Assembly (NCBI GenBank): GCA_963736685.1
Contig: CAVTPZ010000017.1
Location: 9,607 to 73,606, forward strand
Direction: 5' to 3'
Length of the DNA: 64,000 bases
Origin: an uncultured Solirubrobacterales bacterium
Lineage (GTDB): Bacteria > Actinomycetota > Thermoleophilia > Solirubrobacterales > 70-9
Under the pieces are notes generated by a model that worked only from the letters and a program-made list of their open reading frames with translations, did no database searches and was not told where the DNA came from. Both the position numbers and the translations under genes were made by a program. Shown here one piece after another: positions 14,453-41,371 of this stretch. The first letter of the stretch is position 1; every line of letters begins with the position of its first letter.

Positions 14453-14881
14453 GTGGGAAGCCCCGGCTTTTGGGATCGGACTCTGGCGAGACTTCGCGCG
14501 CGCAGCCTCGACGAACGTCTGCTCTCCGGTGATCGTCCCGATGGAAGCAGGCTGGCAAAGGCACGAAGCGCTGAGCTTCTCGATCCCAATTACCGCAAAG
14601 AGGTCGCCCGGGCGCTCAGGGAGATGCTCGATGCGGCCGAGCACGCCAGGAAGAACTTCATGAGGGCGCAGATCTTTCTCAGGGAGTTCGACCTGGTCCA
14701 GTCTCGGGCCGCAATCCGAGATCTCGCCGACGTGCTCGAGGGGAACGCACCCGTGAACCCGCGCGGGGTGATCCTGGCCGACCGGCTGGTGCGCGACGGC
14801 GACTCCCCCGTGTTCTTGGGATCCAATGGAAGCGTGAAGGCGGCGGTCAGCAGAGCACGCTCCGCACTTGACCTCGGCTAG
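14453..14881 (+). CDS. Uncharacterised small protein, paralog family member 1
   Basis: GTG start and good GC3. It shares two conserved blocks with the ORFs at 31632..32129 and 36757..37200. Confidence 0.6.
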   Translation: MGSPGFWDRTLARLRARSLDERLLSGDRPDGSRLAKARSAELLDPNYRKEVARALREMLDAAEHARKNFMRAQIFLREFDLVQSRAAIRDLADVLEGNAPVNPRGVILADRLVRDGDSPVFLGSNGSVKAAVSRARSALDLG

Positions 14882-14942: not shown

Positions 14943-15323
14943 ATGTCGGCAACTCCAAGCGCAGACATTCCGCAGTTCGAGATCAACTCTGGGCCCGGTC
15001 CCGGGCGGGTCCGGGTGGTACGTGTTGCGGGCGAGGTCGACATGTCCCACGAGGAGGAGCTACGCGGAGAGCTTCGCACGGCTGTCGCCGCCGACTCGGC
15101 CGGGATCGTGGTCGATCTGACCGAATGCGAGTTCATCGACTCGAGCGGTGTCCGGGCACTGCTGCTGTCGCGAGAGGCTCAGAACTCGGACGAAGGATCC
15201 GAGCACCTGGCAGTGGCGGCCTCCAGCGAGCAGATCCTTCGCATCCTCACCGTGATGGGCATCGACCGGGTGATTCCCATTCGGCCGACGGTCGAGCAAG
15301 CCGCATCGGCGATCACCGGCTGA
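14943..15323 (+). CDS. STAS-domain anti-sigma-factor antagonist (SpoIIAA-like)
   Basis: Motif DLTECEFIDSSGVRALL and about 125 aa in length. GGGGGAA precedes the ATG. Confidence 0.85.
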   Translation: MSATPSADIPQFEINSGPGPGRVRVVRVAGEVDMSHEEELRGELRTAVAADSAGIVVDLTECEFIDSSGVRALLLSREAQNSDEGSEHLAVAASSEQILRILTVMGIDRVIPIRPTVEQAASAITG

Positions 15324-15327
15324 CCTG

Positions 15328-17170
15328 ATGCACGACATCGCCGAGTTCCTGGGGGGGCGAGACCCTTTCAGCGGGCTCGACGAGGCAGCGCTCGAGGCGC
15401 TCGCCGCCAAGACCGAGGTGGAGTTCTTTCCCGCCGGCACCACGATCGTTCCGCAGGGGAGGCTCTCCCAGGGACGGATCAGGGTGATCAGGCGCGGGTC
15501 CGTCGAGTTGGTCGACCGCGGGACCGTCATCGACGTGCTCGGCGAAGGCGAGATGTTCGGCCATCCCTCGGTGCTCTCCGGCCTCCCTGCGAAGAACGAG
15601 GCCCGGGCGAGTGAGGACACCCTCTGCTACTCGCTGCCCGCGGAGGAAGTCATTCCGCTGCTCGGCCGCCCCTCGAGCCTGCGGTTCCTGACCCGCTCAC
15701 TTCTCGATCGTGCCGGGCGTTCGTCTGGAGATGATGCCGTCCCCCCCAGCCCCGAGGTCGCCCAACAGCCTGCGGCGTCCCTGGTGCGGGGTCCCGCGGT
15801 CAGCTGCAAGCCGGACATGAGCCTGAGGGAGGCGGCGCGGATGATGAACACCAGGGAGGTGAGCTCGGTACTCATCGAGCTCGGCAACGGGGATTACGGG
15901 ATCGTCACCGACCGCGATCTGCGCGTGGGCGTCGTGGCCGGCCCTCTCTCACCGGACGACCCGGTCTCCTCGGCAATGAGCTCGCCCGTCATCGGAGTGG
16001 GGGCCGATCAAACGGGAGCGGACGTGATGCTGGCCATGCTGGACAACAACATCAGGCATGTCCCGGTCTTCTCGGCTCGATCCGAGCTGCTCGGTGTGAT
16101 CGTCGGGATCGATCTGATCGCCGCGGAGACCCGGTCGCCCTTCGTCTTGCGCCGGGCGATTGCCGCGGCGAGGAACCAGCGTGACCTGAGCGACGCCGCC
16201 AGCCGGCTGCGCTCGACGGTGATCGCGCTCCAACGCGCGGAGCTCTCCCCGACGCAGGTCAGCGCCGTGATCTCGGCCGTGGCGGACGCACTCATCGCTC
16301 GAATCATCGAGCTCGCGATCGACTCGCAGGGCCCGCCTCCAGCCGAGTTCTGCTTTATGTCGCTAGGCAGCCACGGCCGCCGGGAGCCGGTCCCCTCCTC
16401 CGACGTCGACTCGGGTATGGCCTGGCGGAATGTTCCGGATTCCGACGCACTCTCCTCAAACGCGAGCCGCAGCCTCGCGACGGTTCGGACCACGGAGTAC
16501 ATGCACGGGATCGCCGCGAGCGTGGCCGACTGCGTCCGAGTCGTAGGCTGGCACCTCGACCCTCACGGCGTGAACGCCTCGGGCACCTTCTCCGCGAGCT
16601 CGATCGAGGACTGGCAGCGAGCGATCGAGCAATGGCTGGCGCACCCTACGGAGAACCGTGTCCTGATCGCGACCTCCATCCTGCTCGACGGCCGGATCGT
16701 CTACGGCCCGCAACGTGGCCTCGACGTCAAGCAGCTCCTCTTCGAGACCGGCTCCCGCGACGTCCTCGAACGCTGGATGCTTCGCCTTGCTCTAGCCGCG
16801 AAGCCGCCGACCGGCTTGAGGAGAACCTTCGACATCAAGCACGGCGGGCTGTTGCCGATCGTCGACCTCGCGCGCTACGCGGCCCTGCGCGCAGGCATCC
16901 GCGTCACACCGACGCTCGCGCGGCTACGGCTGGCGGCGGCTGAGGGCGTCATCCAGGTGACCGAAGCCCGAATCCTCGAAGAGGCGTACGAACTGTTCAG
17001 CGCGCTCCGGCTCGAGCACCAGGTGGGGCAGCTCGAGGCCGGCGAAGGAGCCTGACGACGACATCGACCCGCGGGAACTCGATCCGCTCACCAGGCGATA
17101 CCTGCGCGACGCCTTCAGGGAAGTCGCCGCCGTCCAGCGCTCGATGACGGGCGAGCTCTCCCCTCGCTAG
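15328..17170 (+). pseudogene. cNMP-binding / CBS-pair / DUF294 nucleotidyltransferase signalling protein, C-terminus out of frame from about 17050
   Basis: It has a cNMP-binding domain, two CBS motifs and an NTase motif (GSHGRREPVPSSDVDS). ORF 15328..17055 stops at TGA 17053. The family-typical tail DDDIDPRELDPLTRRYLRDAFREVAAVQRSM continues in the next frame to TAG 17168-17170. Confidence 0.8.
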
Positions 17171-28160: not shown

Positions 28161-29129
28161 TCACCCGTGGGTCAGGTGAACGGCGACGAAGGCGAGGTAG
28201 AGGGAGACGAGCAGGGCGCCGTCCAGACGGTGGGCCCCGCTCGGCCTAGCGAGCACGAGGAGGGTGACAATCGTCATCCCGGTGAACCAGGCGAGGTCGA
28301 ACCTGACCAGGCCCGTCGCCCCACCGAGCCCGACCAGCAGTGCCGGAAGCATCACCCCTCCGGCGAGGTTGATCGTGTTGGAGTTGAGCGTCTCGCTGAC
28401 CAGAGCGGTCCCGCGATCGCTCGCCCCGAGCCGGATCGCGGTGAAAGCGTTCGGCAGGCTGGTCAGAACCGCGAGAATCAGGACGCCGACCACGACGGGC
28501 GAGACATCCCACTGGCCCGCGAGGGAGAGCGCCGTCCGCACCATGCCCTCAGCGCCGAGCACGATCCAGACGATGCAGAGCCCGATCAGGACGATCGCCT
28601 CACGCACCGCCTGAGGCGGTGGATCCGGGATCGCGGCGATCGCGAAGGCGCGTGCCCTCGCCTCTGCCGGGCTCGTGTGAAGGCGGCCTCGCCCGAGCAG
28701 CACCACGTACGGAACCGCCACCATCATGAAGGCGAGCACCGCCAGCCAGGCCGGGATCAGGTCCAGGATCAGTCCGCCGGCGATCAGCGCCGCCAGCAGC
28801 GCCACAGCACCCTCGACCGCGAGCGAGCGCCGTGTCAGGTGAACGGCGCCCGCGAGCAAAGCGCTCATGCCGATCATCGCCGCCAGGTTGAAGACGTTCG
28901 AGCCAAGGACGACCCCCATGCTCACGCTCTTCTCCCCCGCACTCAGGGCGATAAGCGCCGAGGCGATCTCGGGGGCATCGGCCGCGAGGGCGGTGAGCAG
29001 GCCGACGAGCGGCTCGGACAGGCCCAGCTCGGGCCCGACGTGGTCGAGCCTGTCCGCGAAGAGAGCCGCCGCGCCGAGGCAGACGGCCGCCGAGGCACAG
29101 AAGAGCGGAATGGCAAGCGCGGGGCTGAT
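28161..29129 (-). CDS. CaCA-family cation/Ca2+ exchanger (YrbG-like)
   Basis: The alpha-2 repeat (GVLILAVLTSLPNAFTAI) is present. GSNVFNL and the alpha-1 repeat (GLLTALAADAPEIASALIAL) are in the same frame upstream of the first ATG (28925). The frame is open to 29153, but there is no ATG/GTG/TTG upstream of 28931. Confidence 0.75.
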   Translation of the reverse strand: MSPALAIPLFCASAAVCLGAAALFADRLDHVGPELGLSEPLVGLLTALAADAPEIASALIALSAGEKSVSMGVVLGSNVFNLAAMIGMSALLAGAVHLTRRSLAVEGAVALLAALIAGGLILDLIPAWLAVLAFMMVAVPYVVLLGRGRLHTSPAEARARAFAIAAIPDPPPQAVREAIVLIGLCIVWIVLGAEGMVRTALSLAGQWDVSPVVVGVLILAVLTSLPNAFTAIRLGASDRGTALVSETLNSNTINLAGGVMLPALLVGLGGATGLVRFDLAWFTGMTIVTLLVLARPSGAHRLDGALLVSLYLAFVAVHLTHG

Positions 29130-29227
29130 GCGGGAGTGTCCTTCGAGGCAGGTTCAGGGACCGCCGACCAGTCTTCCCGGCACACCTGCTCGCAGGCTAA
29201 CGGTTGGCGGTCGATAACTTGCGTCGC

Positions 29228-29941
29228 ATGCCTCGCCCCCTGATCGGAGTCTGCGCCGCTGTCGAGAACGCCCACTTCGGGGCCTGGAAGGACGAGCCGG
29301 CCGTCCTCCTGCCCCTCTCCTACTCGAGAGCGATTCACGGCGCCGGCGGGATGGTGGCCATGCTCCCTCCGGACCGCCGGGCCACCGAGGATCCCTCGGA
29401 GCTGCTCGACCACCTGGACGCGCTGGTGCTCGGCGGCGGCTCGGACATCGATCCCGGAAGCCACGGCGCCGAGCCGCACGAGGAGACGGTCGGGACGAAC
29501 CCGGACCGGGACCGCTTCGAGATCGCCCTGGCCCAGGCCGCCCTGGAGCGGGGGATTCCCCTGCTCGGCATCTGCCGCGGGATGCAGGTCCTCAACGTCG
29601 CCTGCGGCGGGACCCTCGACCAGCATCTGCCCGACCGTCTGGGTCACGAGCGCCACCGTCCCATCCCGGGATCCTGGACGGAGCACGACGTCCGGATCGA
29701 GCCCGGGTCGCTCGCCGCCCGAGCCGCCGGTTCCGAGCAGCTCACCGTAAAGAGCCATCACCACCAGGGTGTTGACGCCGTTCCCGACTCGCTCTCCGCG
29801 ACCGCCTGGGCGACGGACGACGAGAGCGTCGAGGCGATCGAATCAGACGACGGGGGCTTCGTCCTCGGCGTGCTCTGGCATCCGGAAGAGGACCCGTCGG
29901 ACTCGGTGATTCCGGCGCTGATCGCGCGCGCGGCCGGCTAG
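29228..29941 (+). CDS. Gamma-glutamyl-GABA hydrolase-like class I amidotransferase (peptidase C26, PuuD-like)
   Basis: Motifs GICRGMQVLNVACGG and LGVLWHPE. Confidence 0.85.
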   Translation: MPRPLIGVCAAVENAHFGAWKDEPAVLLPLSYSRAIHGAGGMVAMLPPDRRATEDPSELLDHLDALVLGGGSDIDPGSHGAEPHEETVGTNPDRDRFEIALAQAALERGIPLLGICRGMQVLNVACGGTLDQHLPDRLGHERHRPIPGSWTEHDVRIEPGSLAARAAGSEQLTVKSHHHQGVDAVPDSLSATAWATDDESVEAIESDDGGFVLGVLWHPEEDPSDSVIPALIARAAG

Positions 29942-30466
29942 CTTCGACCGCTTCACGGTCGGGCGCAGGATCAGGATCTCCCCGGGGGCATTCTCGAGCA
30001 TCCAGGCGACGTCGTCGGCTGTGAAGCCGTCCCCGTTGGTGGCGCCCGCCGCCACGATCTGATCGAAGCGCTCGTGTTCCATCAGCATGCGCAGCGCGTG
30101 CCGGACGGTCCTCCCGGGCTCGATCCGAGAGTCGACCGGAACGCCCTGGCTCGCGGCGCGCTGCTCGATCGCCTCGAGCAGCGGCAGGGCCGCTTCGGCC
30201 TGCTTCTTCAGCGGGGTGTCGAGCTGGACACTGAGGGGGACGATGGCCAGGTAGGCCGGGACCAGTGTCGCCCCCTCCGCACGGGCCAACCGCAGGGCCG
30301 CGTCGAAGGCTGGCGTCGAGAGCGCCTGCCCTACGAAGGGGAAGAGGATGCGCTTGGGAGCTGGGGTGATCGCAGCGTCGGTCCGGCGGCGCTTGAGCTC
30401 ACGCACCAGCAGGTAGCCGGTGGAGACGACGAGGGCGGCAATCACCACGATCTCGATCGGGCTCAC
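29843..30466 (-). CDS. Membrane-anchored universal stress protein (Usp) domain protein
   Basis: The GTG at 30466 overlaps the stop of the upstream gene (GTGA). It has an N-terminal TM and a Usp-like fold. The last ~33 codons overlap the convergent gene, so they may not be genuine. Confidence 0.65.
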   Translation of the reverse strand: MSPIEIVVIAALVVSTGYLLVRELKRRRTDAAITPAPKRILFPFVGQALSTPAFDAALRLARAEGATLVPAYLAIVPLSVQLDTPLKKQAEAALPLLEAIEQRAASQGVPVDSRIEPGRTVRHALRMLMEHERFDQIVAAGATNGDGFTADDVAWMLENAPGEILILRPTVKRSKLAGRARDQRRNHRVRRVLFRMPEHAEDEAPVV

Positions 30467-31629
30467 GCCTCCCCCTCCTCAGCGCGCAGGGTGCGATCCG
30501 CCACGACCCGGAGGTCGACTCCCGGCAGGAACTCGAGCAGCCGGGTGGGAAGCCCGGGGCGGAAGCGTTCGAATCCGGTTCTCGGGCTCGGGGTGCCGAT
30601 CAGAACGTAGGTCGTGCCCTTCTCCTCGGCGACCTCCTTGACCGTCTGTGCGATGTCGTCGCCCTCCTCGATGATCAGGTGAGCGCCGAGAACGGCTGCA
30701 AGGCGACCGATCGCATCGAGCTGGTTCTGCTCCTCGGCGCTCGGCTTGTGGCCGGGCCGTTTGACCCAGAGGAGATCCAGATCGGCGCCGAGCCGCTGGG
30801 CGGAGCGCCAGGCCCGCCTCACCAGTCGCTGGGCTCTCGGGGTCGGCTTGATCAGTGCGAGCAGCCGCTCGCCGACGGCCTGCGCCGAGGCGCTGTCCGC
30901 GAGACGGTCCTCGCGCCGGCCGACGGGCTCCTTGACCATCCGCTTCGCCTCGACATCCTCAGCGACCTCGCGCAGCGCCACCTCGCGAAGGGCGGCGAGA
31001 TTCTCGATGCGAAAGAAGTTGTTGAGCGCCGAGTCGATCCGCTCGGAGGGATAGATCTTGCCGGCGCGCAGCCGGGCCAGCAGCGCCTCCGGCGTCAGGT
31101 CCATCAGCACGACCTCGTCGGCTGACGCGAGGACCGCGTCGGGAAGCGTCTCCCGTACACGGACACCAGTCAGCTCGCAGACGCTGTCGTTGAGGCTCTC
31201 GAGGTGCTGCACGTTGACCGTCGAGTAAACGTCGATCCCGGAGGCGAGCACGTCAGCGACGTCCTCGTAGCGCTTCTCGTGCTCGAGGCCGGGCGCGTTG
31301 GTGTGCGCCAATTCGTCGATCAGCGCCAGGTCGGGCGCGCGCTCGATGACGGCGGGAAGGTCCATCTCCTCGAGATCCGTGTCGCGGTAAGTGACATGCC
31401 GGCGCGGAACGAATTCGAGACCGTCCGCCTGGTCGACCGTCTCCTGGCGTCCGTGTGGCTCCAGATAGCCGATGACCACGTCCCGCCCGGAGTCCGCCTC
31501 GGCGCGCCCCTCCTGCAGCATTCGATAGGTCTTTCCGACACCGGCGGCCATACCCAGGAAGACCTTGAGGCTGCCACGGTCCACCTCGGCGCTGCCGCGC
31601 TCGCGACTCTCTTCGGTGGGCTCGGCCAT
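30463..31629 (-). CDS. kdpD: Stand-alone KdpD N-terminal sensor domain plus Usp domain (no TM or kinase part)
   Basis: Has the KdpD N-domain Walker-A-like motif GMAAGVGKTYRML, plus LIDELAHTN and NVQHLESLND. The C-terminal half is Usp-like. ATG 31629 is 3 nt after the upstream stop (the alternative start is TTG 31638). Confidence 0.85.
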   Translation of the reverse strand: MAEPTEESRERGSAEVDRGSLKVFLGMAAGVGKTYRMLQEGRAEADSGRDVVIGYLEPHGRQETVDQADGLEFVPRRHVTYRDTDLEEMDLPAVIERAPDLALIDELAHTNAPGLEHEKRYEDVADVLASGIDVYSTVNVQHLESLNDSVCELTGVRVRETLPDAVLASADEVVLMDLTPEALLARLRAGKIYPSERIDSALNNFFRIENLAALREVALREVAEDVEAKRMVKEPVGRREDRLADSASAQAVGERLLALIKPTPRAQRLVRRAWRSAQRLGADLDLLWVKRPGHKPSAEEQNQLDAIGRLAAVLGAHLIIEEGDDIAQTVKEVAEEKGTTYVLIGTPSPRTGFERFRPGLPTRLLEFLPGVDLRVVADRTLRAEEGEA

Positions 31630-31631
31630 CG

Positions 31632-32129
31632 TCACCAAGTTTCCTCCCGTCCCTCCATGGCGTCGAGGATGTCCTCCGCCTCGTGGGCGAGGTGACTGCC
31701 GATCTTCGGGTCAAACAGGACGCTGTTGGGGTGTGTGAGCAGCAGGTGCACCCGTGCCACGCCCCGGGGGCTGACGGCCCTGTCCGACTCGAGCATCGAG
31801 GCGACCCATGTGAGCGGGACCCGCGCCGCCACCAAGCCGTTCCGGTTCGGCGTCACGGCGGCGCTCGGGCCGCGGCTGACCTCGTCCCGGTTGAGCAGGT
31901 GCCTGATGGCACCGGCCAGGCGGCGCCGTGACTCGGGACTCGTCAGCCAGGCGGAGCGCTGCGCGAGTGAGGGGGACAACGCGGGGTCGGCGCCATCGCT
32001 GAGGGCCTGGTCGAAGGTGGCGCCGTTCAGGTGGGCCCAGAGACGGACGCGGATCCCGGCCCTGCGAGGGCTCGGGATCCGTGGCCGGCTGTCGGCGACG
32101 AAGCCTGTTCCGGTGAGCTGCTCGGCCAT
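31632..32129 (-). CDS. Uncharacterised small protein, paralog family member 2 (inside the kdp operon)
   Basis: The ATG at 32129 is 1 nt after the kdpB stop, and its stop is 3 nt before the kdpD-N ATG. It shares conserved blocks with 14453..14881 and 36757..37200. Confidence 0.65.
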   Translation of the reverse strand: MAEQLTGTGFVADSRPRIPSPRRAGIRVRLWAHLNGATFDQALSDGADPALSPSLAQRSAWLTSPESRRRLAGAIRHLLNRDEVSRGPSAAVTPNRNGLVAARVPLTWVASMLESDRAVSPRGVARVHLLLTHPNSVLFDPKIGSHLAHEAEDILDAMEGREETW

Positions 32130-32130
32130 C

Positions 32131-34200
32131 TCACGCCCCGAACAGACCGTGGACGATCAGGTCGATCAGCTTGATCCCGATGAAGGGCGCGATGATGCCG
32201 CCGAGGCCGTAGATGAAGAGGTTGCGCCGCAGGAGGGCGGACGCGCCCGAAGGCCGATAGCGGACGCCGCGCAGTGCCAGCGGGATCAGCAGCGGGATCA
32301 CCAGCGCGTTGAAGATGATCGCCGAGATGATCGCCGACTCGGGCGTACCCAGATCCATGATGTTGAGCTTGTTGAGGGGCCCGTCTCCACCCGCTGACGT
32401 CGCATAGGTGGCGGCGAAGATCGCCGGCAGGATGGCGAAGTACTTCGCCACGTCGTTCGCGATCGAGAACGTGGTGAGGGCGCCGCGGGTGATCAGCAGC
32501 TGCTTTCCGACCTCGACGATCTCGATGAGCTTCGTCGGGTTCGAATCGAGGTCGACCATGTTCCCCGCCTCGCGTGCCGCCTGAGTTCCCGTGTTCATGG
32601 TCACGCCGACGTCGGCCTGCGCCAGCGCCGGGGCGTCGTTCGTCCCGTCGCCGGTCATCGCGATCATCCGTCCCCCCGCCTGCTGCTCCTTGATCAGGTC
32701 GAGCTTCTTCTCCGGAGTGGCCTCAGCCAGGAAGTCGTCGACGCCGGACTCGTCGGCGATCTTGGCGGCCGTCAGCTTGTTGTCGCCGGTGATCATCACC
32801 GTGCGAATGCCCATCGCCCTCAGCTGATCGAAGCGATGGCGCATGCCGTCCTTGACGACGTCCTTCAGGTAGATGACACCGAGGACCTGGCTGTCCTGCG
32901 CCACCGCGAGCGGCGTACCGCCCTCTCGACCGATCCGGTCGAGCTGCTCCTGCAGCGCCGGCGGAGCCGTGCCGCCCTCCGCCTTGACGAAGTCGATGAT
33001 CGCGTCGCCCGCGCCCTTGCGCAGGCGCTGCCCGTTGACGTCCACGCCGCTCATCCGGGTCTCGGCGCTGAACGGGACGAAGTTCGCCTTGTGTGAGGAC
33101 ATCTCGTGCTCGCGGATTCCGTACTTCTTCGCGAGCACGACGATCGAGCGGCCCTCGGGGGTCTCGTCGGCCAGCGACGACATCTGCGCCGCCTCCGCCA
33201 GGTCTGCCTCGGCCACCCCCGGCATCGGGACGAACTCGGTGGCCTCGCGGTTGCCGAGCGTGATCGTGCCCGTCTTGTCGAGGAGAAGGACGTCGACATC
33301 GCCCGAGGCCTCCACTGCACGCCCGGAAAGGGCCAGCACGTTCCGCCGGACGAGGCGATCCATGCCCGCAATCCCGATCGCGGAGAGCAGGGCACCGATC
33401 GTGGTCGGAATCAGGGCGACGAGCAGGGCGATCAGGGTCGCAACGGAGGCAGCCGTGCTCGAGAACTCCGCCATCGGCCGCAGCACGACGACGACCGCCA
33501 GGAAGACGATGGTCAGACCCGAGAGCAGGATGTTGAGGGCGATCTCGTTCGGCGTCTTGCGCCGTTCGGCGCCCTCGACTAGCGCGATCATGCGGTCGAG
33601 GAAGCTCTTGCCGGGCTCCTGGGTGATCTCGACCACGATCCGGTCCGAGAGCACCTTTGTGCCGCCGGTGACCGCACTGCGGTCGCCGCCCGCCTCGCGG
33701 ATCACGGGAGCCGACTCGCCGGTGATCGCGGACTCGTCGACCGAGGCGATGCCCTCGATCACGGTGCCGTCGCCCGGGATCACCTCCCCGGCCTGGATCA
33801 CCACCAGGTCGCCCTTCTGCAGCTCCGAGGCGGTCACCTCGCGGCCGTCCTTCAGGTGGGCAACGGTCTCGGTGCGCGCGGCGCGGAGGGCGTCGGCCTG
33901 GGCCTTGCCGCGGCCCTCGGCGAGCGCCTCGGCAAGGTTCGCGAAGACCACGGTCAGCCAGAGCCAGAACGCCACCGTGAAGGTGAACCAGGCCGGCTCG
34001 TCGCCGCCGCCCAGCGGGCCATTGCCGAACGCCTGGTTGATCCAGCCGATCGTGGTGATGACGGCGCCGACCTCGACCACGAACATCACCGGGTTGTGGA
34101 TCTGGTGGCGCGGGCTGAGCTTCTTGACGCTCGACCAGATCGCCGGGAGCACCAGCTCACGGTCGAACATGGATACACGTCGGCGGTTGTTCTCGGTCAC
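32131..34200 (-). CDS. kdpB: K+-transporting P-type ATPase subunit B
   Basis: Motifs DKTGTIT, TGDN and [10 protein letters not shown]. The GTG overlaps the kdpC stop (GTGA). Confidence 0.97.
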
Positions 34201-34844
34201 TGCGGGGACTCCTTATCGAGGGCGATGTTGAGCTCGAGCACGTTCACCCCGGGCTCGCCGAGGACGCCGAGAGCGCGTCCGTCGGTGTTGTCGTCGATCA
34301 GCTGGTTCACCCGGTCAAGCGGGATGCCGCGCACCTTCGAGATCCGGCGAGCCTGGATCCGGGCGTTGGCCTGGGAGATGTCGGGGTCGACGCCTGACGC
34401 CGAGGAGGTGATCGCGTCGACGGGGATGTCTCGCCGGGTCAGTCCCGAGTCGTAGGGCCGCTCCAGCGCGAGGTACTTGCGGATGTAGCCCTTGAACTCC
34501 TGCATCAGCTCCCGGTTGTTCGGCCCTAGGTTGTTGAAGAAGGCTGTATCGGCGCTGTAGGTCGTGACCGACGGGCGCGGCTGGAAGTACTTCGGGTCGG
34601 GCGTCTTGATCTGCTTCTTGCCGAACTTGCCGCGCTGGGCGGCCGGAATCGGATGCCGGATCGTGAAGCTCTGGCCGATCAGCTTGGACCCGACGGTCCT
34701 GCCGTCGACCTTCACCTGGCTGCCATCCGACCCGTTCGGGAAGAGCACCTGCGAGACACCCGTCGCGATCAGCGGGTAGGCCACGCCGAAGAGCAGCGTG
34801 AAGGCCACCACGGCGATGATCGAGGCTGTCAGGTCGCGTCTCAT
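34197..34844 (-). CDS. kdpC: K+-transporting ATPase subunit C
   Basis: N-terminal TM, then [16 protein letters not shown] and [11 protein letters not shown]. The ATG at 34844 is 1 nt after the kdpA stop. Confidence 0.93.
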
Positions 34845-34845
34845 C

Positions 34846-36603
34846 TCAGAAGAGCTGGTTGGTGAGGCCCTGGACGACCGGTCCAAGCAGGAGGGCGGGG
34901 AAGAAAGTCAGAGCCGCGACGATCACGATCACCGCGAGCAGCAGGATCACGAAGGTGGGGTTGTCGGTTCGGAAGGTGCCGGGTCCGGCGGGCACCACGC
35001 GCTTCATCGAGAGCGAACCGGCGACGGCCAAAGCCGAGAGCAGGGGAACGAAGCGGGCCATCAGCATCGAAAGCCCGCCGAGGATGTCTGCGAAGGTGAT
35101 CCCATAGGCACCGACGTTGCCCGGGGCGTTCGGCTGTACGAAGCCGGTGTAGCCGGCGAACGCGGAGCCGTTGTTGTTCGCCTGGGAGGTGTAGGCGTAG
35201 AGCGTCTCCGAGAATCCCTGCGGACCCGGATTGAAGATCGAAGGCGCCCCGTACTTGCTCGAGATCGCGATCCCGGTTGCAATCAGGGCCACCATCGGCG
35301 TGAACAGCAGCCCGATCAGCACCAGCTTCATCTCCCGGGACTCCACCTTCTTGCCCAGGTACTCGGGGGTTCTTCCCACCATCAGGCCGGCTATGAAGAC
35401 CGCCAGGAGAACCGTCAAGAGCATCCCGTACAGCCCCGAGCCGACCCCGCCGAAGATCACCTCCCCGGTCATCATGTTGGTGAGCGGCACGAGGCCGCCG
35501 ATGCCGGTGAGGGAGTCGTGGGCGCCGTTGACGGAGCCGTTGGAGGCGTCCGTCGTGAAGTTCGCCCACTCGGCGGTTGCCGTGATCCCGTTGCGCTGCT
35601 CCTTGCCCTCGAGGTTGCCGCCGGTCGTGCCATCCGCTGCGGCGGTGTTCTCGCCTGCGACGTGCTGCGCGGGGGATCCGTTCTGCTCGGCGGCGTAGGC
35701 GACGCCGAACAGGCTGATGGCGAAGACGACCATCGTCGCGTACAGGGCCCAGCCCTGGCGGCGGTTGCCCACCATGCGGCCGAACTGAGCCGTGGCGGCG
35801 GCGGGAATCAGGAGGATGAAGATCATCTCGACGAAACCCGAGAACTGCGTCGGGTTCTCGAACGGGAAGGAGCTGTTGAGGTTGAAGAACCCGCCTCCGT
35901 TGGTTCCCAGCTGCTTGATCGCGATCTGCGAGGCGGCGGGTCCCATCGGCAGGGTCTGGTCGAGGCCGCCGAGCCCGTGGATCGTCACGTAGCCGCCGAG
36001 CGACTGGACCACGCCCTGGGAGACGAGGATCAGGGTTCCGATCACCGACAGGGGAAGCAGGATGTAGAGCAGCGTGCGGGTGACGTCTCGCCAGAAGTTG
36101 CCGAGCTCCCTGACGCCGCGGCTGGCGAAGCCACGGATGACAGCGGCGAGGACGGCCATGCCGACCGCCGCCGAGACGAAGTTCTGGACGGCCAGGCCGG
36201 CCATCTGCGAGAAGTACGTCATCGTCGTCTCGCCGCCGTAGTACTGCCAGTTGGTGTTGGTGATGAACGACGAGGTCGTGTTGAAGGTCACGTCCCAGGG
36301 GGCGGAACGGAATCCCTCGGGGTTCCACGGGTGGATGTTCTGCGTGCGGAGGATCAGATAGAGGACGAGAAAGAAGACGAAGGAGAAGATCACCGTCGTC
36401 TTGCCGTATGCCTTCCAGTCCTGCTCCGTGCGAGCCGAGGGTCCCAGCACGCGGTAGATCAGCCGCTCGAGCCAGCCGAGCGGCCGCTCGAGGAAGAGGC
36501 GCTCGCCCTGGTAGACCCGCGCCATGTATCCGCCCAGGAGCGGCACCAGCGCGGTGAGAACCGCGACGTAGATCGCCAGCTGCAGCCAGCCGTTGACGGT
36601 CAC
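34846..36603 (-). CDS. kdpA: K+-transporting ATPase subunit A
   Basis: 585-aa polytopic protein with KdpA selectivity-filter-like repeats (TNTNWQYYGGE, QLGTNGGGFFN). The GTG overlaps the kdpF stop. Confidence 0.96.
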   Translation of the reverse strand: MTVNGWLQLAIYVAVLTALVPLLGGYMARVYQGERLFLERPLGWLERLIYRVLGPSARTEQDWKAYGKTTVIFSFVFFLVLYLILRTQNIHPWNPEGFRSAPWDVTFNTTSSFITNTNWQYYGGETTMTYFSQMAGLAVQNFVSAAVGMAVLAAVIRGFASRGVRELGNFWRDVTRTLLYILLPLSVIGTLILVSQGVVQSLGGYVTIHGLGGLDQTLPMGPAASQIAIKQLGTNGGGFFNLNSSFPFENPTQFSGFVEMIFILLIPAAATAQFGRMVGNRRQGWALYATMVVFAISLFGVAYAAEQNGSPAQHVAGENTAAADGTTGGNLEGKEQRNGITATAEWANFTTDASNGSVNGAHDSLTGIGGLVPLTNMMTGEVIFGGVGSGLYGMLLTVLLAVFIAGLMVGRTPEYLGKKVESREMKLVLIGLLFTPMVALIATGIAISSKYGAPSIFNPGPQGFSETLYAYTSQANNNGSAFAGYTGFVQPNAPGNVGAYGITFADILGGLSMLMARFVPLLSALAVAGSLSMKRVVPAGPGTFRTDNPTFVILLLAVIVIVAALTFFPALLLGPVVQGLTNQLF

Positions 36604-36668
36604 AGGTTCTCGCCCCGGAGCAGCGAGTAGAGGAGGTAGAAGAACAGGAGGATCGAGACGACCAGCAT
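36600..36668 (-). CDS. kdpF: KdpF small subunit (22 aa)
   Basis: Hand-translated as MLVVSILLFFYLLYSLLRGENL. Its stop TGA overlaps the kdpA GTG. Confidence 0.75.
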   Translation of the reverse strand: MLVVSILLFFYLLYSLLRGENL

Positions 36669-36685
36669 TGAGCCCTCCGCGAAGC

Positions 36686-36766
36686 TCATATGCGGTCCAG
36701 CCCGTCGATCAGGAAATAGAGCGCGGCGAAGACCACGACCGCGATTGCGATGGAGATCAGATCCAT
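36686..36766 (-). CDS. Second KdpF-like hydrophobic peptide (26 aa)
   Basis: Hand-translated as MDLISIAIAVVVFAALYFLIDGLDRI. It lies 17 nt upstream of kdpF, and its ATG overlaps the end of the upstream ORF. Confidence 0.4.
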   Translation of the reverse strand: MDLISIAIAVVVFAALYFLIDGLDRI

Positions 36767-37200
36767 GGGTCGGAGGATCGCCGCGCCGCCGTCAAGCCGG
36801 CATGGGGCTTTGCCGGTTGCACATCAAGATTTCGTGAAGCCACCCCGGTGGGCAGCGAGTCCGTGGCGCGCAGGGCCTCGCCGGCGACCTCGGCGAGCCT
36901 GGCTGCGCCTCCCACTCCCCACAGCGGGCCGTCACATTCCGTGATCATCAGCAGCGCCTTCGCCACACCCCCGGGGGCGATCGGCCCGGGCGCCATCAGC
37001 CGCTCAACCAGCCGGTCGAGCTCGACTCCCGAGCCGGGCGGGGAGAGCTCCTCGAGCGACAACGCGAGGCGGCGCCGGTCCTCCAGGTCAACGAGTTCGG
37101 CGGCCCGCACGGCGAGCAGGGGGTCAAGGCTCGGGTCGGCTCCCGCCGCCAGCCGGCGGTCGAGCGTTCGCCTATGGAGCCATGCCCGTACGCGATTCAC
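36757..37200 (-). CDS. Uncharacterised small protein, paralog family member 3 (between kdpE and kdpF)
   Basis: ORF 36757..37200. It shares the LDxxLxxGxDP...LAxRxxxL...RRRLA block and the PxGV...D.P.W block with the other two paralogs. The C-terminal ~35 aa may be read-through. Confidence 0.6.
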   Translation of the reverse strand: MNRVRAWLHRRTLDRRLAAGADPSLDPLLAVRAAELVDLEDRRRLALSLEELSPPGSGVELDRLVERLMAPGPIAPGGVAKALLMITECDGPLWGVGGAARLAEVAGEALRATDSLPTGVASRNLDVQPAKPHAGLTAARRSSDPWI

Positions 37201-37278
37201 ATGGCCATGCTGGGGGCCATCGCATGATCAGAACGCAAAGATCCGAGGGACCTGGATCAAGATCGTGTGAAGGGGTGG

Positions 37279-37953
37279 TCAGGCCCCGAACCGATACCCG
37301 ACGCCGGGATCGGTGCGTATGTAGCGAGGGCCGTCAGACGGTTCGATCTTGCGCCGCAGGTTCGCGATATGCGTACGGAGCGTCTGGGTGTCCTCCTCCC
37401 AGCCCGGGCCCCAGACCTCGGTGAGCAGCGCCCTGTGGGTCATCAGCCGGCCGCGGTTGCGCGCCAGCGTGCCGAGCAGCCGGAACTCGATCGGCGTCAG
37501 ATGCACCTCCTCCCCGTCGCGTTTCACGGTGTGACCGGCCAGGTCGATCTCCAGGCCGTCCGCGCTGAGCGCGGGCTCCTCGGCGGCCTCGCCCGCACGG
37601 CGAAGGGCCGCGTTCAGCCTGGCGACCAGCTCCCTGGGGCCGAACGGCTTGGTCACGTAGTCGTCGGCGCCAGCCTCGAGCGCGCGGACTTTCTGCTCCT
37701 CCTCTCCGACGGCGGAGAGGACGAGAATCGGCATCTCGCTCCAGGAGCGGATGCTGCGTGTGACCTCGACGCCGTCGCCGTCGGGCAGGATCAGGTCGAT
37801 GATCGCGGCGTCGGGAGGCTTCACGGACGCGGCATCGAGCGCCTCTGTCGCATCGGCGGTCTCGACCACCTCGAAGCCGGCGTCCTTGAGGACGACCCGG
37901 AGCGCCCGCCGGATCTGCATCTCGTCATCGCAGACCAGAATGCGCTGCGTCAT
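37279..37953 (-). CDS. kdpE: KdpE-type OmpR-family response regulator
   Basis: Receiver plus winged helix. It overlaps the upstream kinase gene by 4 nt and lies in the kdp context. Confidence 0.9.
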   Translation of the reverse strand: MTQRILVCDDEMQIRRALRVVLKDAGFEVVETADATEALDAASVKPPDAAIIDLILPDGDGVEVTRSIRSWSEMPILVLSAVGEEEQKVRALEAGADDYVTKPFGPRELVARLNAALRRAGEAAEEPALSADGLEIDLAGHTVKRDGEEVHLTPIEFRLLGTLARNRGRLMTHRALLTEVWGPGWEEDTQTLRTHIANLRRKIEPSDGPRYIRTDPGVGYRFGA

Positions 37954-39386
37954 CGCGCGGGGGCCGGCGCGACCGGCTCAGCACGCTCATCCGACCTCGG
38001 GCTGTCCAGCGGGAACTCCACGACGAACGTGGTCCCCTGCCCGGGCAGCGACTCGACCGAGACGCGTCCTCCGTTCGCTTCCACGAACCCCTTGACGATC
38101 GCGAGGCCAAGGCCCGCGCCCGTGTGCGAAGGATCGTTGGAGCCTCGGTAGAAGGCCTCGAAGATGCGGTCGAGATCGCGGTCGGCGATCCCAGGCCCCC
38201 GATCCACGACCCGGATCACGAGGCGGCCGGAGACCTCCCGGGCTCGAACAGAGACCCGCTCGCCCCCCGAGTAGCGGGCGGCATTCGAGAGGAGATTGAC
38301 GAACACGCGCTCCAGCTGGGCGGCGTCGGCCCGGATGAACGGCAGCTGCTGGTCGATGGAGAGCTGGAAGCGATCGCGATCGATCTCGAGATCGTTGATC
38401 GCCACTTCGACGACCTCCTCGATCGACGTCCAGTCGGTCGAGGGCTCCGCGGTGCCCGTGCGCAGCCGCGACAGGTCGAGCAGGTTGTCGACAAGGTCTC
38501 CCAGTCGATCCGCATCGTCGATGATCGCCTCGCGCAGGTCCGCTCTGTCCTTTTCGTCGATCGTCGGCGACGTGAGCGCCTCGGCGGCCGCCCGGATCGC
38601 CGTGATTGGCGTACGCAGGTCATGGGAGACCGTGCGCAGCAGCGCGGTCTTGATCTCGTCGCTGCGACGCAGGGCCTCGGTCTCGACCGTCGCACTCATC
38701 AGCGACTCGCGGTCGATCGCCGCGACCAGCAGGGCCTCGAGTCCGGGCACCAGCCGCTGCTGGAGGCGATCCAAGTTGCCACGGTCGATGCCAAGCGGGA
38801 CGACCAGCGTGCCCAGGCGCCGTCCCTGGTGACGGAGCGGCAGCTCGAGGCGCGCAGGGTGATCCACGGCTTCACCGAGCTGGAGCGCCGCAGAGGGGAG
38901 CTCGAGCGCCGTGGCAATGCGCTCGGCGGCGACCGGTAGCGCCGCCATCAGGCTCGGACCGCCGAGCAGGGTTCGCGCCAGCTCCGCCATCAGGTCCGCC
39001 TCACGCCGTCTTGCCTCCGCCTCCTGAGTGCGGCTGCGGGCCAGCTCCGAGAGCGTGCTCGCCATAGCCGCGGTGACGAAGAATGCGGCGAGCGCGACCC
39101 AGTTCCGCGAGTCGGCGATCGTGAACCGCCCGGTCGGCGGCAGGTGGAAGAAGTTGAACGCAGCTGCGCTGAGGAGCGCGGTCAGCATTCCCCACCTGAA
39201 GCCCCAGAAGATCGAGACGCCGAGCACCGCCAGCAGGTAGACGACCCCGAGGGAGACCGCGGGGGCGATCTGCCTGAGCGGATAGATCGCGAGCGTGCAC
39301 AGAGCCACCGACGCGACGGCGACGATCAGTCCCAGGGTCCGTGAGCGAGGCGGCTCGCGGAGCAGGAGCGGTGTGCTCAGCTCCAT
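37950..39386 (-). CDS. kdpD: KdpD C-terminal-type membrane histidine kinase (DUF4118 TM bundle, GAF-like, HisKA, HATPase), lacking the KdpD N-domain
   Basis: ATG at 39386 (MELSTPLLL). Four TM segments are typical of the KdpD core. H-box is VSHDLRTPI and G-box is GAGLGLAIV. Confidence 0.88.
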   Translation of the reverse strand: MELSTPLLLREPPRSRTLGLIVAVASVALCTLAIYPLRQIAPAVSLGVVYLLAVLGVSIFWGFRWGMLTALLSAAAFNFFHLPPTGRFTIADSRNWVALAAFFVTAAMASTLSELARSRTQEAEARRREADLMAELARTLLGGPSLMAALPVAAERIATALELPSAALQLGEAVDHPARLELPLRHQGRRLGTLVVPLGIDRGNLDRLQQRLVPGLEALLVAAIDRESLMSATVETEALRRSDEIKTALLRTVSHDLRTPITAIRAAAEALTSPTIDEKDRADLREAIIDDADRLGDLVDNLLDLSRLRTGTAEPSTDWTSIEEVVEVAINDLEIDRDRFQLSIDQQLPFIRADAAQLERVFVNLLSNAARYSGGERVSVRAREVSGRLVIRVVDRGPGIADRDLDRIFEAFYRGSNDPSHTGAGLGLAIVKGFVEANGGRVSVESLPGQGTTFVVEFPLDSPRSDERAEPVAPAPAR

Positions 39387-39463
39387 CTCGAGAGCAGGGT
39401 ACGACGCTCGGCGCACCGGCAGCGGGCACGCTTGCCCGCGCACGTATATTCGAAGCGGCTGCA

Positions 39464-41371
39464 ATGGCTCGACGGATTCCAAGGGACGAATCGCTGGCGC
39501 GAGTCCACGGGGTGGGCGCGCTCTTCTCGGCGGCCTACGGCAACGTGGGCAGCTCGATCTACTACGCACTCGGCGTCACGGCGGCCTTCGCGCTCGGCCT
39601 GACGCCGGTCGCCTTCGTGATCGCCGGCCTGATCTTCATGGCCACCGCCGCCACCTACGCCGAGGCGACCGTGATGTTCCCCGAGGCCGGCGGCTCGGCG
39701 AGCTTCGCGCGGCATGCCTTCAACGAGCTGGTCAGCTTCTTCGCGGGGTGGGGCCAGATGCTCAACTACATCATCACGGTCGCCATCTCGGCCTTCTTCG
39801 TCCCGCACTACCTGGCGGTGTTCTGGCCGTGGCTCGGGAACTCGCCGGGAGACATCCTCGGCGGCGTCGCGGTGATCGTCTTCCTCGCCGCGCTCAACGT
39901 GAAGGGGACCCAGGAGTCGACGCGGCTCAACCTCGTCCTCGCCGTCGTCGACCTCTGCACCCAGGCCATTCTGGTCGTGATCGGGATGGTGCTCGTCTTC
40001 AGCCCCAGCGTCCTGGTGGACAACGTCCACCTCGGCGTTGCGCCGAGCTGGGGCGACTTCCTGCTCGGGATCGCCGTCGGCATGATCGCCTACACCGGGA
40101 TCGAGACGATCTCCAACATGTCCGAAGAGGCGAAGGACGCCTCCAAGACGATCCCGAAGGGCGTCGGGCTGACTGTCCTGGCCGTCCTCGGCCTCTACGC
40201 GCTGTTGCCGCTGATCGCGCTCTCGGCGATGCCCGTTCATCACGTCGCCGGCCACTACACGACGGATCTGGGCACCAAGTTCGCCGACGACCCGGTGCTC
40301 GGCATTGTCGAGAACCTCGGGCTGAGCTCCGGCCTGACCGACATCCTCCGCTACTACGTCGGGGTGCTCGCCGCGGTCATCCTGCTGATCGCCACGAACG
40401 CCGGACTGATCGGGGTCTCACGACTCACCTTCTCGATGGGCCACTATCGTCAGCTCCCCGAGCGGCTCAGGCAGGTTCACCCCAAGTATCGGACGCCCTA
40501 CGTGGCGATCCTGGTCTTCTCGGCGATCGCGATCATCACCCTGATCCCCGGTGAGACCAAGCTGCTGGCGACGCTCTACTCGTTCGGCGCGATGCTCTCC
40601 TTCACGATCGCCCACATCTCGGTGATCAGGCTGCGCCAGCGCTTTCCGGACCAAGAGCGCGATTGGAAGCCTCCCGGGAGCATCCGTGCCTTTGGCTTCG
40701 ACCTCCCGCTGACCGCCGCCTTCGGCGGGTTCGGGACATTCGCCGCCTGGATCGTCGTGCTGGCCCTCAACCCGCGCACCCTCGTGATCGGCACCGCGTG
40801 GATGCTCCTCGGGATCTCGATCTACCTGCTCTACCGCCGCTCGCAGGGGCTCTCCCCCGTGCAGACCCACAAGGTCGTACTGCCGGAGCCCCTCGGGGTC
40901 GAGGAGGTCGAGTACAAGAGCGTCCTGGTCGCCTTCGAAGAGGACGAGCCGTTCTCGGAACAGACGATGGTCACCGCGGTCAAGCTGGCCTCCAAGAAGC
41001 GCCGCGCAATCCATGTGATCTCGGTCGTCATCGTGCCCAGCCACCTGCCGCTCGACGCCTCGCTGACCGAGCAGGAGGAGGCGGCCCGCTCGAAGATCGA
41101 GCAGGCGAAGCTGATCGGCGGCATGCGCGTCAGCGGGCACGTCCACCGGGCGCGGCCGAACCAGGCGGGCCACTCGATCGCCGAGGAGGCGCGCGAGCTG
41201 AAGGCAAGCGCCCTCGTCATGGGCCTGCGCTACCGCAACGGGGCGCCGCTCTACGGCAAGACGCTGCAGACCGTGCTCGCGGAGCGTCCCTGCCGGGTGA
41301 TCGTGGTCGGCGAGCCGGAGTTGGCCAGGGAGGCGGCCGGGCTCAGCGGACCGGTCGGAGCTTCGGCCTAG
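39464..41371 (+). CDS. APC-family amino acid/polyamine permease with a C-terminal Usp domain
   Basis: ATG at 39464 (MARRIPRDE). It has 12 TM segments and a ~150-aa Usp-like C-terminus (YKSVLVAFEEDE...ASALVMG...RVIVV). Confidence 0.85.
   Translation: MARRIPRDESLARVHGVGALFSAAYGNVGSSIYYALGVTAAFALGLTPVAFVIAGLIFMATAATYAEATVMFPEAGGSASFARHAFNELVSFFAGWGQMLNYIITVAISAFFVPHYLAVFWPWLGNSPGDILGGVAVIVFLAALNVKGTQESTRLNLVLAVVDLCTQAILVVIGMVLVFSPSVLVDNVHLGVAPSWGDFLLGIAVGMIAYTGIETISNMSEEAKDASKTIPKGVGLTVLAVLGLYALLPLIALSAMPVHHVAGHYTTDLGTKFADDPVLGIVENLGLSSGLTDILRYYVGVLAAVILLIATNAGLIGVSRLTFSMGHYRQLPERLRQVHPKYRTPYVAILVFSAIAIITLIPGETKLLATLYSFGAMLSFTIAHISVIRLRQRFPDQERDWKPPGSIRAFGFDLPLTAAFGGFGTFAAWIVVLALNPRTLVIGTAWMLLGISIYLLYRRSQGLSPVQTHKVVLPEPLGVEEVEYKSVLVAFEEDEPFSEQTMVTAVKLASKKRRAIHVISVVIVPSHLPLDASLTEQEEAARSKIEQAKLIGGMRVSGHVHRARPNQAGHSIAEEARELKASALVMGLRYRNGAPLYGKTLQTVLAERPCRVIVVGEPELAREAAGLSGPVGASA

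Follow-up and report, generated by a model that had tools for sequence, protein, structure and literature searches.

In Escherichia coli KdpD is a single polypeptide of 894 amino acids (aa), encoded in the order kdpFABC-kdpDE and provided with a full GAF domain. Its N-domain is an atypical serine kinase (ASK) which phosphorylates S162 of the pump subunit KdpB and inhibits the pump, residues 1-230 being active alone (PMC11018627). A survey of KdpD architectures described a two-chain class, "KdpD/Usp + TM/GAF/DHpCA" (TM, transmembrane), in 140 of 5,495 species, being commonest in Acidobacteriota and Chloroflexota (Silberberg et al. 2024, PMC11018627). In Deinococcus radiodurans a kdpBAC-kdpD-N operon is accompanied by a divergent operon of a sensor kinase (DR_B0082) and a response regulator (DR_B0081), and the regulator controls kdp (Dani et al. 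2017, PMC5716572). D. geothermalis has a natural protein with KdpD and Usp domains only, which can phosphorylate KdpB of E. coli and responds to cyclic di-AMP (c-di-AMP) as its stimulus, not to K+ (PMC11018627). Here we describe the kdp locus found in a 64-kb window (the whole stretch of DNA that was analysed) from a soil bacterium of the Solirubrobacterales (Thermoleophilia, Actinomycetota), in which KdpD is encoded as two separate proteins; all the relevant genes lie on the minus strand, to which the coordinates below refer unless the plus strand is indicated.

The N-terminal half of KdpD is a soluble protein of 388 aa formed by KdpD_N and a probable Usp domain (30463-31629), while the C-terminal half is a histidine kinase of 478 aa (37950-39386) that starts with four TM helices (DUF4118), after which come a short linker of alpha/beta type and the HisKA (DHp) and HATPase_c (CA) domains. 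The two products tile E. coli KdpD, the break falling in the linker between Usp and TM1. A KdpE-like response regulator of the OmpR family (224 aa, 37279-37953, with Response_reg and Trans_reg_C domains by Pfam) follows the kinase, its start overlapping the kinase stop codon by 4 nt. The kinase and N-half genes are separated by 6,321 bp (37950 to 31629), with a complete pump operon in between, in agreement with the distance of about 6.3 kb given in a preliminary description of this DNA. Both chains are intact and separately encoded, there is no full-length KdpD within the window, and the N half is unfused in 80 related loci. The Solirubrobacterales case is a new lineage-level example of the already described split-KdpD class, and the presence of the split in all the genomes of the order that were examined (80/80) adds a well-documented lineage of Thermoleophilia to it.

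When compared with the two-chain class of Silberberg et al., the domain split between two chains, the presence of KdpE and the location of the ASK chain downstream of the pump genes are the same, whereas the GAF module is strongly reduced here and the paper highlights Acidobacteriota and Chloroflexota. The N half is 69% identical to Conexibacter woesei D3F9J1, a Thermoleophilia entry of the survey, whose row in the table gives "KdpD domain, Usp domain" only, together with "# KdpD = 2", KdpE D3F9I6 and diadenylate cyclase D3F137 (PMC11018627). Since that row, as far as its own columns go, lists the N half only, the separate kinase half of this lineage may have been left unscored, and the survey may under-count the two-chain class in Actinomycetota. 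The D. radiodurans arrangement also has the N half after the pump genes, a C-half kinase with its regulator adjoining the operon and a pump gene order permuted with respect to E. coli; in that species, however, the kinase/regulator operon is divergent and the order is B-A-C, while here the same strand carries kinase and regulator upstream of the pump genes, whose order is A-C-B. The locus in the window adds to it a gene for a TM-Usp protein, a 165-aa gene of a helical family and a 26-aa peptide, and belongs to Actinomycetota instead of Deinococcota.

The preliminary description had likened the N half to the short KdpD proteins of cyanobacteria and Deinococcus, a comparison that proved apt. KdpD of D. 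geothermalis (Q1J2K3) displays 42% identity over the whole length (E=1e-87), sharing both the KdpD_N+Usp architecture and the motifs Walker A and Walker B, although Deinococcota lack KdpE in the survey (0/28, PMC11018627) and kinase and regulator are kept here. Likewise, the short KdpD of Anabaena is a protein with N-domain and Usp only, encoded with the pump genes (PMC11018627, PMC5716572), but KdpE is found in only 5 of 131 cyanobacteria (PMC11018627) and there a kinase half does not belong to the locus in the manner observed here. With respect to E. coli, all the domains are recognisably orthologous and the regulatory serine motif of KdpB is conserved; the differences are the single polypeptide, the gene order, the full GAF domain and W39, which is Tyr here.

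The open reading frame (ORF) of the N half extends from 31638 to 30463 when read from a TTG start, encoding 391 aa, and the ATG at 31629 gives the 388-aa product. It had been read as the KdpD N-terminal domain plus a Usp-like half on the motifs GVGKTYRML, LIDELAHTN and NVQHLESL, all three of which are present, and our searches confirm that assignment: the protein matches PF02702 (KdpD) with E=2.3e-92 over positions 2-210 of the 210 of the profile, the solved N-domain structure PDB 2R8R with E=3.7e-66, and E. coli K-12 KdpD residues 17-373 by BLASTP with 40% identity (E=9e-72), an alignment covering both the KdpD and Usp domains. While KdpD_N was thereby assigned by Pfam, the Usp match stayed slightly below the threshold, at 20.7 bits with the whole protein and 23.7 bits with its C-terminal half alone against a cut-off of 24. 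The Walker A variant G-x5-GKT (GMAAGVGKT here), the Walker B pair D-E (D109/E110 in E. coli, IDELAH here) and the equivalent of R190 (R186) are invariant in the 89 sequences of the clade. Almost invariant too is the alpha-1 helix of the Usp domain (RRAWRSAQRL), including R271, A273, W274, R279, L280 and D285, an indication that a site for a ligand or a partner is conserved there.

The N half also matches the NCBIfam model NF038185, "KdpD-like non-kinase potassium sensor", over positions 15-372 of 373 with 358 bits, under the curated cut-off of 550; by this comparison it has the same architecture but falls outside the curated clade of that model. The cognate KdpB shares 62% identity with its E. 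coli counterpart and conserves the TGES motif with the equivalents of E161 and S162. The pattern S-A-[IV]-TGES-APV was present in 61 of 68 related KdpB matches; the remaining ones were left unscored, six being matches of the loose pattern to an earlier TGE and one having no match.

The preliminary description of the product of 37950-39386, as starting with a four-TM bundle of DUF4118 type followed by HisKA and HATPase, was also correct. Pfam detected DUF4118 (PF13493, E=4.6e-25), HisKA (E=3.9e-17) and HATPase_c (E=8.5e-29), and a single BLASTP alignment (E=7e-46) showed the protein to be colinear with residues 391-880 of E. coli KdpD. Its start at 39386 is supported by a GC content at third codon positions (GC3) of 0.86 in the gene versus 0.62 in the upstream extension of the ORF, where codon-position GC is flat, as well as by homologues of about 478 aa and by the 478-aa gene call of the source record itself. 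In the AlphaFold model (pLDDT 79) helices span residues 16-39, 43-61 and 63-80, with another from residue 93. The SHDLRTP motif aligns to H673, the phospho-acceptor of E. coli KdpD, and HATPase_c has its N, G1 and G2 boxes; this histidine (H255) and the G1 and G2 boxes are invariant in 47 kinase homologues. The top NCBIfam match of the kinase is KdpD itself (PRK10490, 197 bits in two stretches), under the cut-off of the full-length model as expected for a half protein, and many of its homologues carry the JGI name KdpD. By these comparisons KdpD, among histidine kinases, is the one to which the protein is closest, and its partner is a KdpE-like regulator.

The domains, their tiling, the conservation of catalytic residues and the order-wide split, as observed, are best explained by a naturally split KdpD/KdpE system in which the two halves work as separable modules, a reading to which we assign a probability of about 0.7. 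The model draws on homologues for the activities of the kinases and the signals they sense, as well as for the KdpE box and for what a Usp partner would do. In one module the membrane kinase (four TM helices, short linker, DHp and CA) and the KdpE-like regulator would sense K+ limitation and activate the downstream operon, composed of the 26-aa peptide, kdpF, kdpA, kdpC, kdpB, the 165-aa ORF, kdpD-N and the TM-Usp gene, probably through CTTCAC-N5-CTTGAT direct repeats. The other module would be the soluble KdpD_N+Usp protein, which, being made from the same transcript as the pump, would track it in amount; by analogy with the proteins described above it would act as an atypical serine kinase that phosphorylates the Ser of KdpB TGES and, at sufficient K+, switches the pump off. 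The Usp domain could serve to set this activity, the input being a small ligand (c-di-AMP, for instance) or a Usp partner, for which the co-encoded TM-Usp protein is a candidate. Conservation of the split favours the view that KdpD combines two separable modules, a serine kinase and a histidine kinase.

There are several points that weigh against this reading. The only proteins for which phosphorylation of the KdpB serine has been demonstrated are those of E. coli and D. geothermalis (PMC11018627). The kinase half has a strongly reduced GAF region, which in E. coli belongs to the apparatus that senses K+, and K+ sensing by this half is therefore only assumed: the linker matched no Pfam GAF family even at E<=10, the AlphaFold model displays between TM4 and DHp (residues ~146-197) no more than a helix and a sheet of three strands, in the place of the larger GAF domain of E. 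coli, and most of the 59 gaps of the BLASTP alignment with E. coli KdpD fall in that region. The name "TM-GAF-kinase" used in the preliminary description is thus borne out in its TM and kinase parts, the GAF label being unconfirmed. The best NCBIfam match of the regulator is indeed KdpE, but with 216.8 bits against a cut-off of 325. In the N half, W39 of the adenine-coordinating pair W39/R190 is replaced by Tyr; in the clade this position is Tyr in 81 and Phe in 7 of the 89 sequences, both of them aromatic residues. The ligand of the N half is uncertain because the c-di-AMP motif SXS-X20-FTAXY of S. aureus-type KdpD Usp domains (PMC4686210) is missing from it; the sequence reads KPTPRAQRLVRRAWRSAQRLGADLDLLWV, having neither SXS nor FTAXY, and the Usp helix RRAWRSAQRL...LDLLWV is nearer to the E. 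coli type, RXXXR-X8-WXAVY. Nevertheless, the c-di-AMP-responsive protein of D. geothermalis is likewise devoid of SXS-X20-FTAXY, and absence of the motif therefore does not exclude control by c-di-AMP. Finally, scans of positions 29000-40500 for sigma-70 promoters and intrinsic terminators gave nothing over the shuffled background, and no operon boundaries could be drawn from them.

A broken gene could in principle produce a similar picture, if a frameshift, a rearrangement or an assembly artefact had disrupted a full-length kdpD, leaving both ORFs as its remnants, and another, functional copy resided elsewhere in the genome. Only 64 kb of the source genome were inspected, and some of the surveyed genomes bear extra KdpD variants beside a full-length copy (PMC11018627). 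In the window no second KdpD_N-like sequence was found; the two halves lie 6.3 kb apart with the whole pump operon between them, and both are full-length for their domains and coding-type in composition, GC3 ranging from 0.86 to 0.92 across all the genes of the locus, the 165-aa ORF included. For the comparison with relatives the N-half protein was scanned against one genome per species (GTDB), yielding 80 loci, with identities of up to 96%; their records are assigned to Solirubrobacterales, to Thermoleophilia or, with a broader label, to Actinomycetota. Among the 88 KdpD_N homologues of these loci the stop codon was located 0-53 codons past the alignment in 87 and 173 codons past it in the other, and none (0/88) had a match to the kinase half in frame after KdpD_N; the same split was found in each of the 80 species-level genomes. 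The 120 best homologues of the kinase half, in turn, are devoid of the N half: they are mostly of about 460-510 aa, with a few shorter fragments and one protein of 705 aa that has an added receiver domain. Because the N-only stops recur across the 80 loci, kinases lacking the N half exist as such and the catalytic residues are invariant in 89 N-half and 47 kinase-half sequences, we interpret the arrangement as a split and not as decay. The decayed remnants considered in the preliminary description are therefore contradicted by conservation and GC3, pseudogene formation and assembly artefact were rejected on conservation and codon composition, and we regard a broken kdpD with a functional copy elsewhere as extremely improbable; judged from these alignments, the split is an ancient, selected feature of the order.

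The preliminary description went further and took the separation of the halves to imply that they assemble or signal in trans. In its strong form this would mean that the soluble N half docks non-covalently on the cytoplasmic part of the kinase, on the KdpE~P-DNA complex or on both, its main job being to tune the balance between kinase and phosphatase. The two cytoplasmic domains of E. coli KdpD do interact directly, and its N-domain by itself (residues 1-395) makes the KdpE~P-DNA complex more stable and renders the expression of kdp constitutive (PMC2714519). Moreover, the two halves share a locus in most relatives: in the 63 loci with the full 10 kb of upstream sequence, kinase half and regulator were upstream on the same strand in 45 and inverted downstream in 5. 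A second KdpD_N/Usp copy, also N-only, was present within 10 kb of the first in eight loci (L017, L029, L046, L053, L055, L059, L073 and L076), which correspond to the class "KdpD domain, Usp domain x2" of the published survey (PMC11018627), and in L055 this second copy stands in a kinase-regulator-KdpD_N gene string. On the other hand, the N-domain is capable of catalysis on its own in vitro and proteins with KdpD and Usp only function in species having neither kinase half nor KdpE (PMC11018627), a kinase half is missing from the 10 kb around the N half in 12 of the same 63 loci, and the tightest linkage of the N half is to the TM-Usp gene (80/80 loci) and the pump genes, not to the kinase. 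What remains of the earlier claim is that two intact genes flank the pump genes; action in trans is plausible and possible, neither implied nor required by the layout, and an obligate assembly seems to us unlikely. Somewhat less doubtful, while still short of probable, is a refinement of the separable-module reading in which TM-Usp anchors the serine kinase beside KdpFACB, replacing the covalent link to the TM bundle. It would account for a TM-Usp gene placed directly after the N-half gene in all 80 loci, with a 4-nt overlap in the window, and would fit the nearly invariant alpha-1 helix of the N-half Usp domain and the binding of UspC to the KdpD Usp domain in E. coli (PMC2714519); against it, the TM-Usp protein has no detectable similarity to KdpD's Usp domain.

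The more useful leads are the linked TM-Usp gene, the putative KdpE box and the helical family found beside several kinds of cation transporter, as they provide hypotheses on how a free-standing KdpD N-domain may be positioned and regulated. The TM-Usp gene (29843-30466) encodes 207 aa with one N-terminal TM helix and a Usp-like domain, whose Usp match reaches 23.1 bits against the Pfam cut-off of 24; some homologues have precomputed PF00582 matches and the JGI name UspA-family. It is the last gene of the operon and overlaps the stop codon of the N-half gene, so the latter, placed at the operon end in the preliminary description, is actually the penultimate one. The protein may be a membrane tether or a UspC-like partner of the N half. 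The possibility that it is a duplicate of the KdpD Usp domain was tried and rejected, no similarity being found by BLASTP.

The candidate KdpE box is a direct repeat, CTTCAC-N5-CTT[GT][AG]T, which occurs twice in the 64-kb window, where 0.27 copies are expected, both times in the kdp locus. Box 1 (37256-37272, CTTCACACGATCTTGAT, with a 6-5-6 arrangement) is located just past the stop codon of the regulator gene and upstream of a 147-aa ORF, and box 2 (36823-36839, CTTCACGAAATCTTGAT) lies upstream of the small peptides and kdpA. Direct repeats with 6-5-6 geometry are typical of the binding sites of OmpR-family regulators. The motif is conserved in the intergenic region between the regulator gene and kdpF of relatives; in an alignment of eight sequences, from the window and seven related loci, box 2 aligns with the motif that follows the regulator stop codon. 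Elsewhere, genes of the helical family have the repeat upstream of them as well (L030, L040, L069 and L082). On the basis of this pattern and its conservation we propose the repeat as a candidate KdpE binding site. Rfam was scanned over the whole window for a ydaO (c-di-AMP) or other riboswitch upstream of kdp, and no family reached the gathering score.

The pump operon begins with a hydrophobic 26-aa peptide (36686-36766, MDLISIAIAVVVFAALYFLIDGLDRI), encoded directly 5' of kdpF and overlapping its start. This peptide was kept in the eight aligned sequences (8/8) and had no match in Pfam or NCBIfam, nor could it be assigned to a family. The kdpF gene (36600-36689) encodes 29 aa, with scores of 24.2 bits for TIGR02115 and 18.2 bits for PF09604, both slightly under the cut-off. 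It is followed by kdpA (34846-36603; PF03814, E=1.9e-216), kdpC (34197-34886; PF02669, E=1.5e-59), which lies between kdpA and kdpB, and kdpB (32131-34200), encoding the P-type ATPase subunit with the TGES motif. The order kdpF-kdpA-kdpC-kdpB, in place of F-A-B-C, is unusual, and every related locus in which kdpA, kdpB and kdpC could all be located (66/66) had kdpA-kdpC-kdpB. A literature search for a kdpACB or kdpFACB gene order returned incidental strings only and no description of it.

Between kdpB and the N-half gene we found an ORF of 165 aa (31632-32129), whose stop codon is 2 nt ahead of the N-half ATG. Its GC3 is 0.89, and its closest orthologues, also of 165 aa, end in a conserved REETW. 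The protein is paralogous to that of the 147-aa ORF (36757-37200) located between the regulator gene and the small peptides (32% identity, E=6e-12 by BLASTP), and a third copy, of 142 aa, is encoded at 14453-14881 on the plus strand; none of the three had a Pfam or NCBIfam match. The AlphaFold model of the 165-aa protein consists of eight helices (pLDDT 76.7, pTM 0.70), and Foldseek against the PDB gave a best E of 2.6, so no fold was assigned. A profile search covering 1.84 billion representative proteins, clustered at 50% identity, placed 3,490 clusters in the family at E<=1e-3 and 1,993 at E<=1e-10.

Of the 80 related kdp loci, 34 contain members of this helical family, which recur at three positions, some of them behind the putative KdpE box. 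Nine distant members were also inspected: four are near cation transporters (one upstream of KdpA, another upstream of a Na+/Ca2+ exchanger, Na_Ca_ex, a third that overlaps a Kup gene at its start, and one near a Cation_efflux gene), two are near other transporters and three are near none. A general link of the family to kdp was accordingly borne out only in part. Regarding the 147-aa ORF, its core (residues 1-114) has a GC3 of 0.85 and looks coding, whereas the 3' tail, with a GC3 of 0.67, is non-coding-like and overlaps the conserved promoter region. The ORF is missing at its position in most close relatives and looks like a recent insertion or duplication that brought the second copy of the box.

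Taken to its furthest, the material could be read as a conserved multi-part control of Kdp in Solirubrobacterales, made up of a minimal kinase without a GAF sensor and KdpE, a soluble serine kinase with Usp, an invariably co-encoded TM-Usp protein that tethers or gates it through Usp-Usp pairing, and members of the helical family, of ~160 aa, as a new accessory or regulatory factor of cation transport. We put this forward as a speculation that is unlikely to hold.

Divergent from the kinase gene lies, on the plus strand (39341-41371), a gene for an AA_permease_2 amino-acid permease with a C-terminal Usp domain, the third Usp domain at the kdp locus; this divergent arrangement is kept in the closest relatives (L002-L005, L008 and L012). 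At the other end, downstream of the operon, a peptidase C26/GATase gene is convergent with the TM-Usp gene and overlaps its 3' end by ~100 bp (the coordinates given are 28161-28925 on the minus strand and 29204-29941 on the plus strand), and an ORF beyond it may resemble, by eye, the membrane region of Na+/Ca2+ exchangers. Beside the third copy of the helical family, at 14943-17055 on the plus strand, are encoded a STAS-domain protein and a protein with cNMP-binding (cyclic nucleotide-binding), CBS and DUF294 nucleotidyltransferase domains, possibly a signalling cluster.

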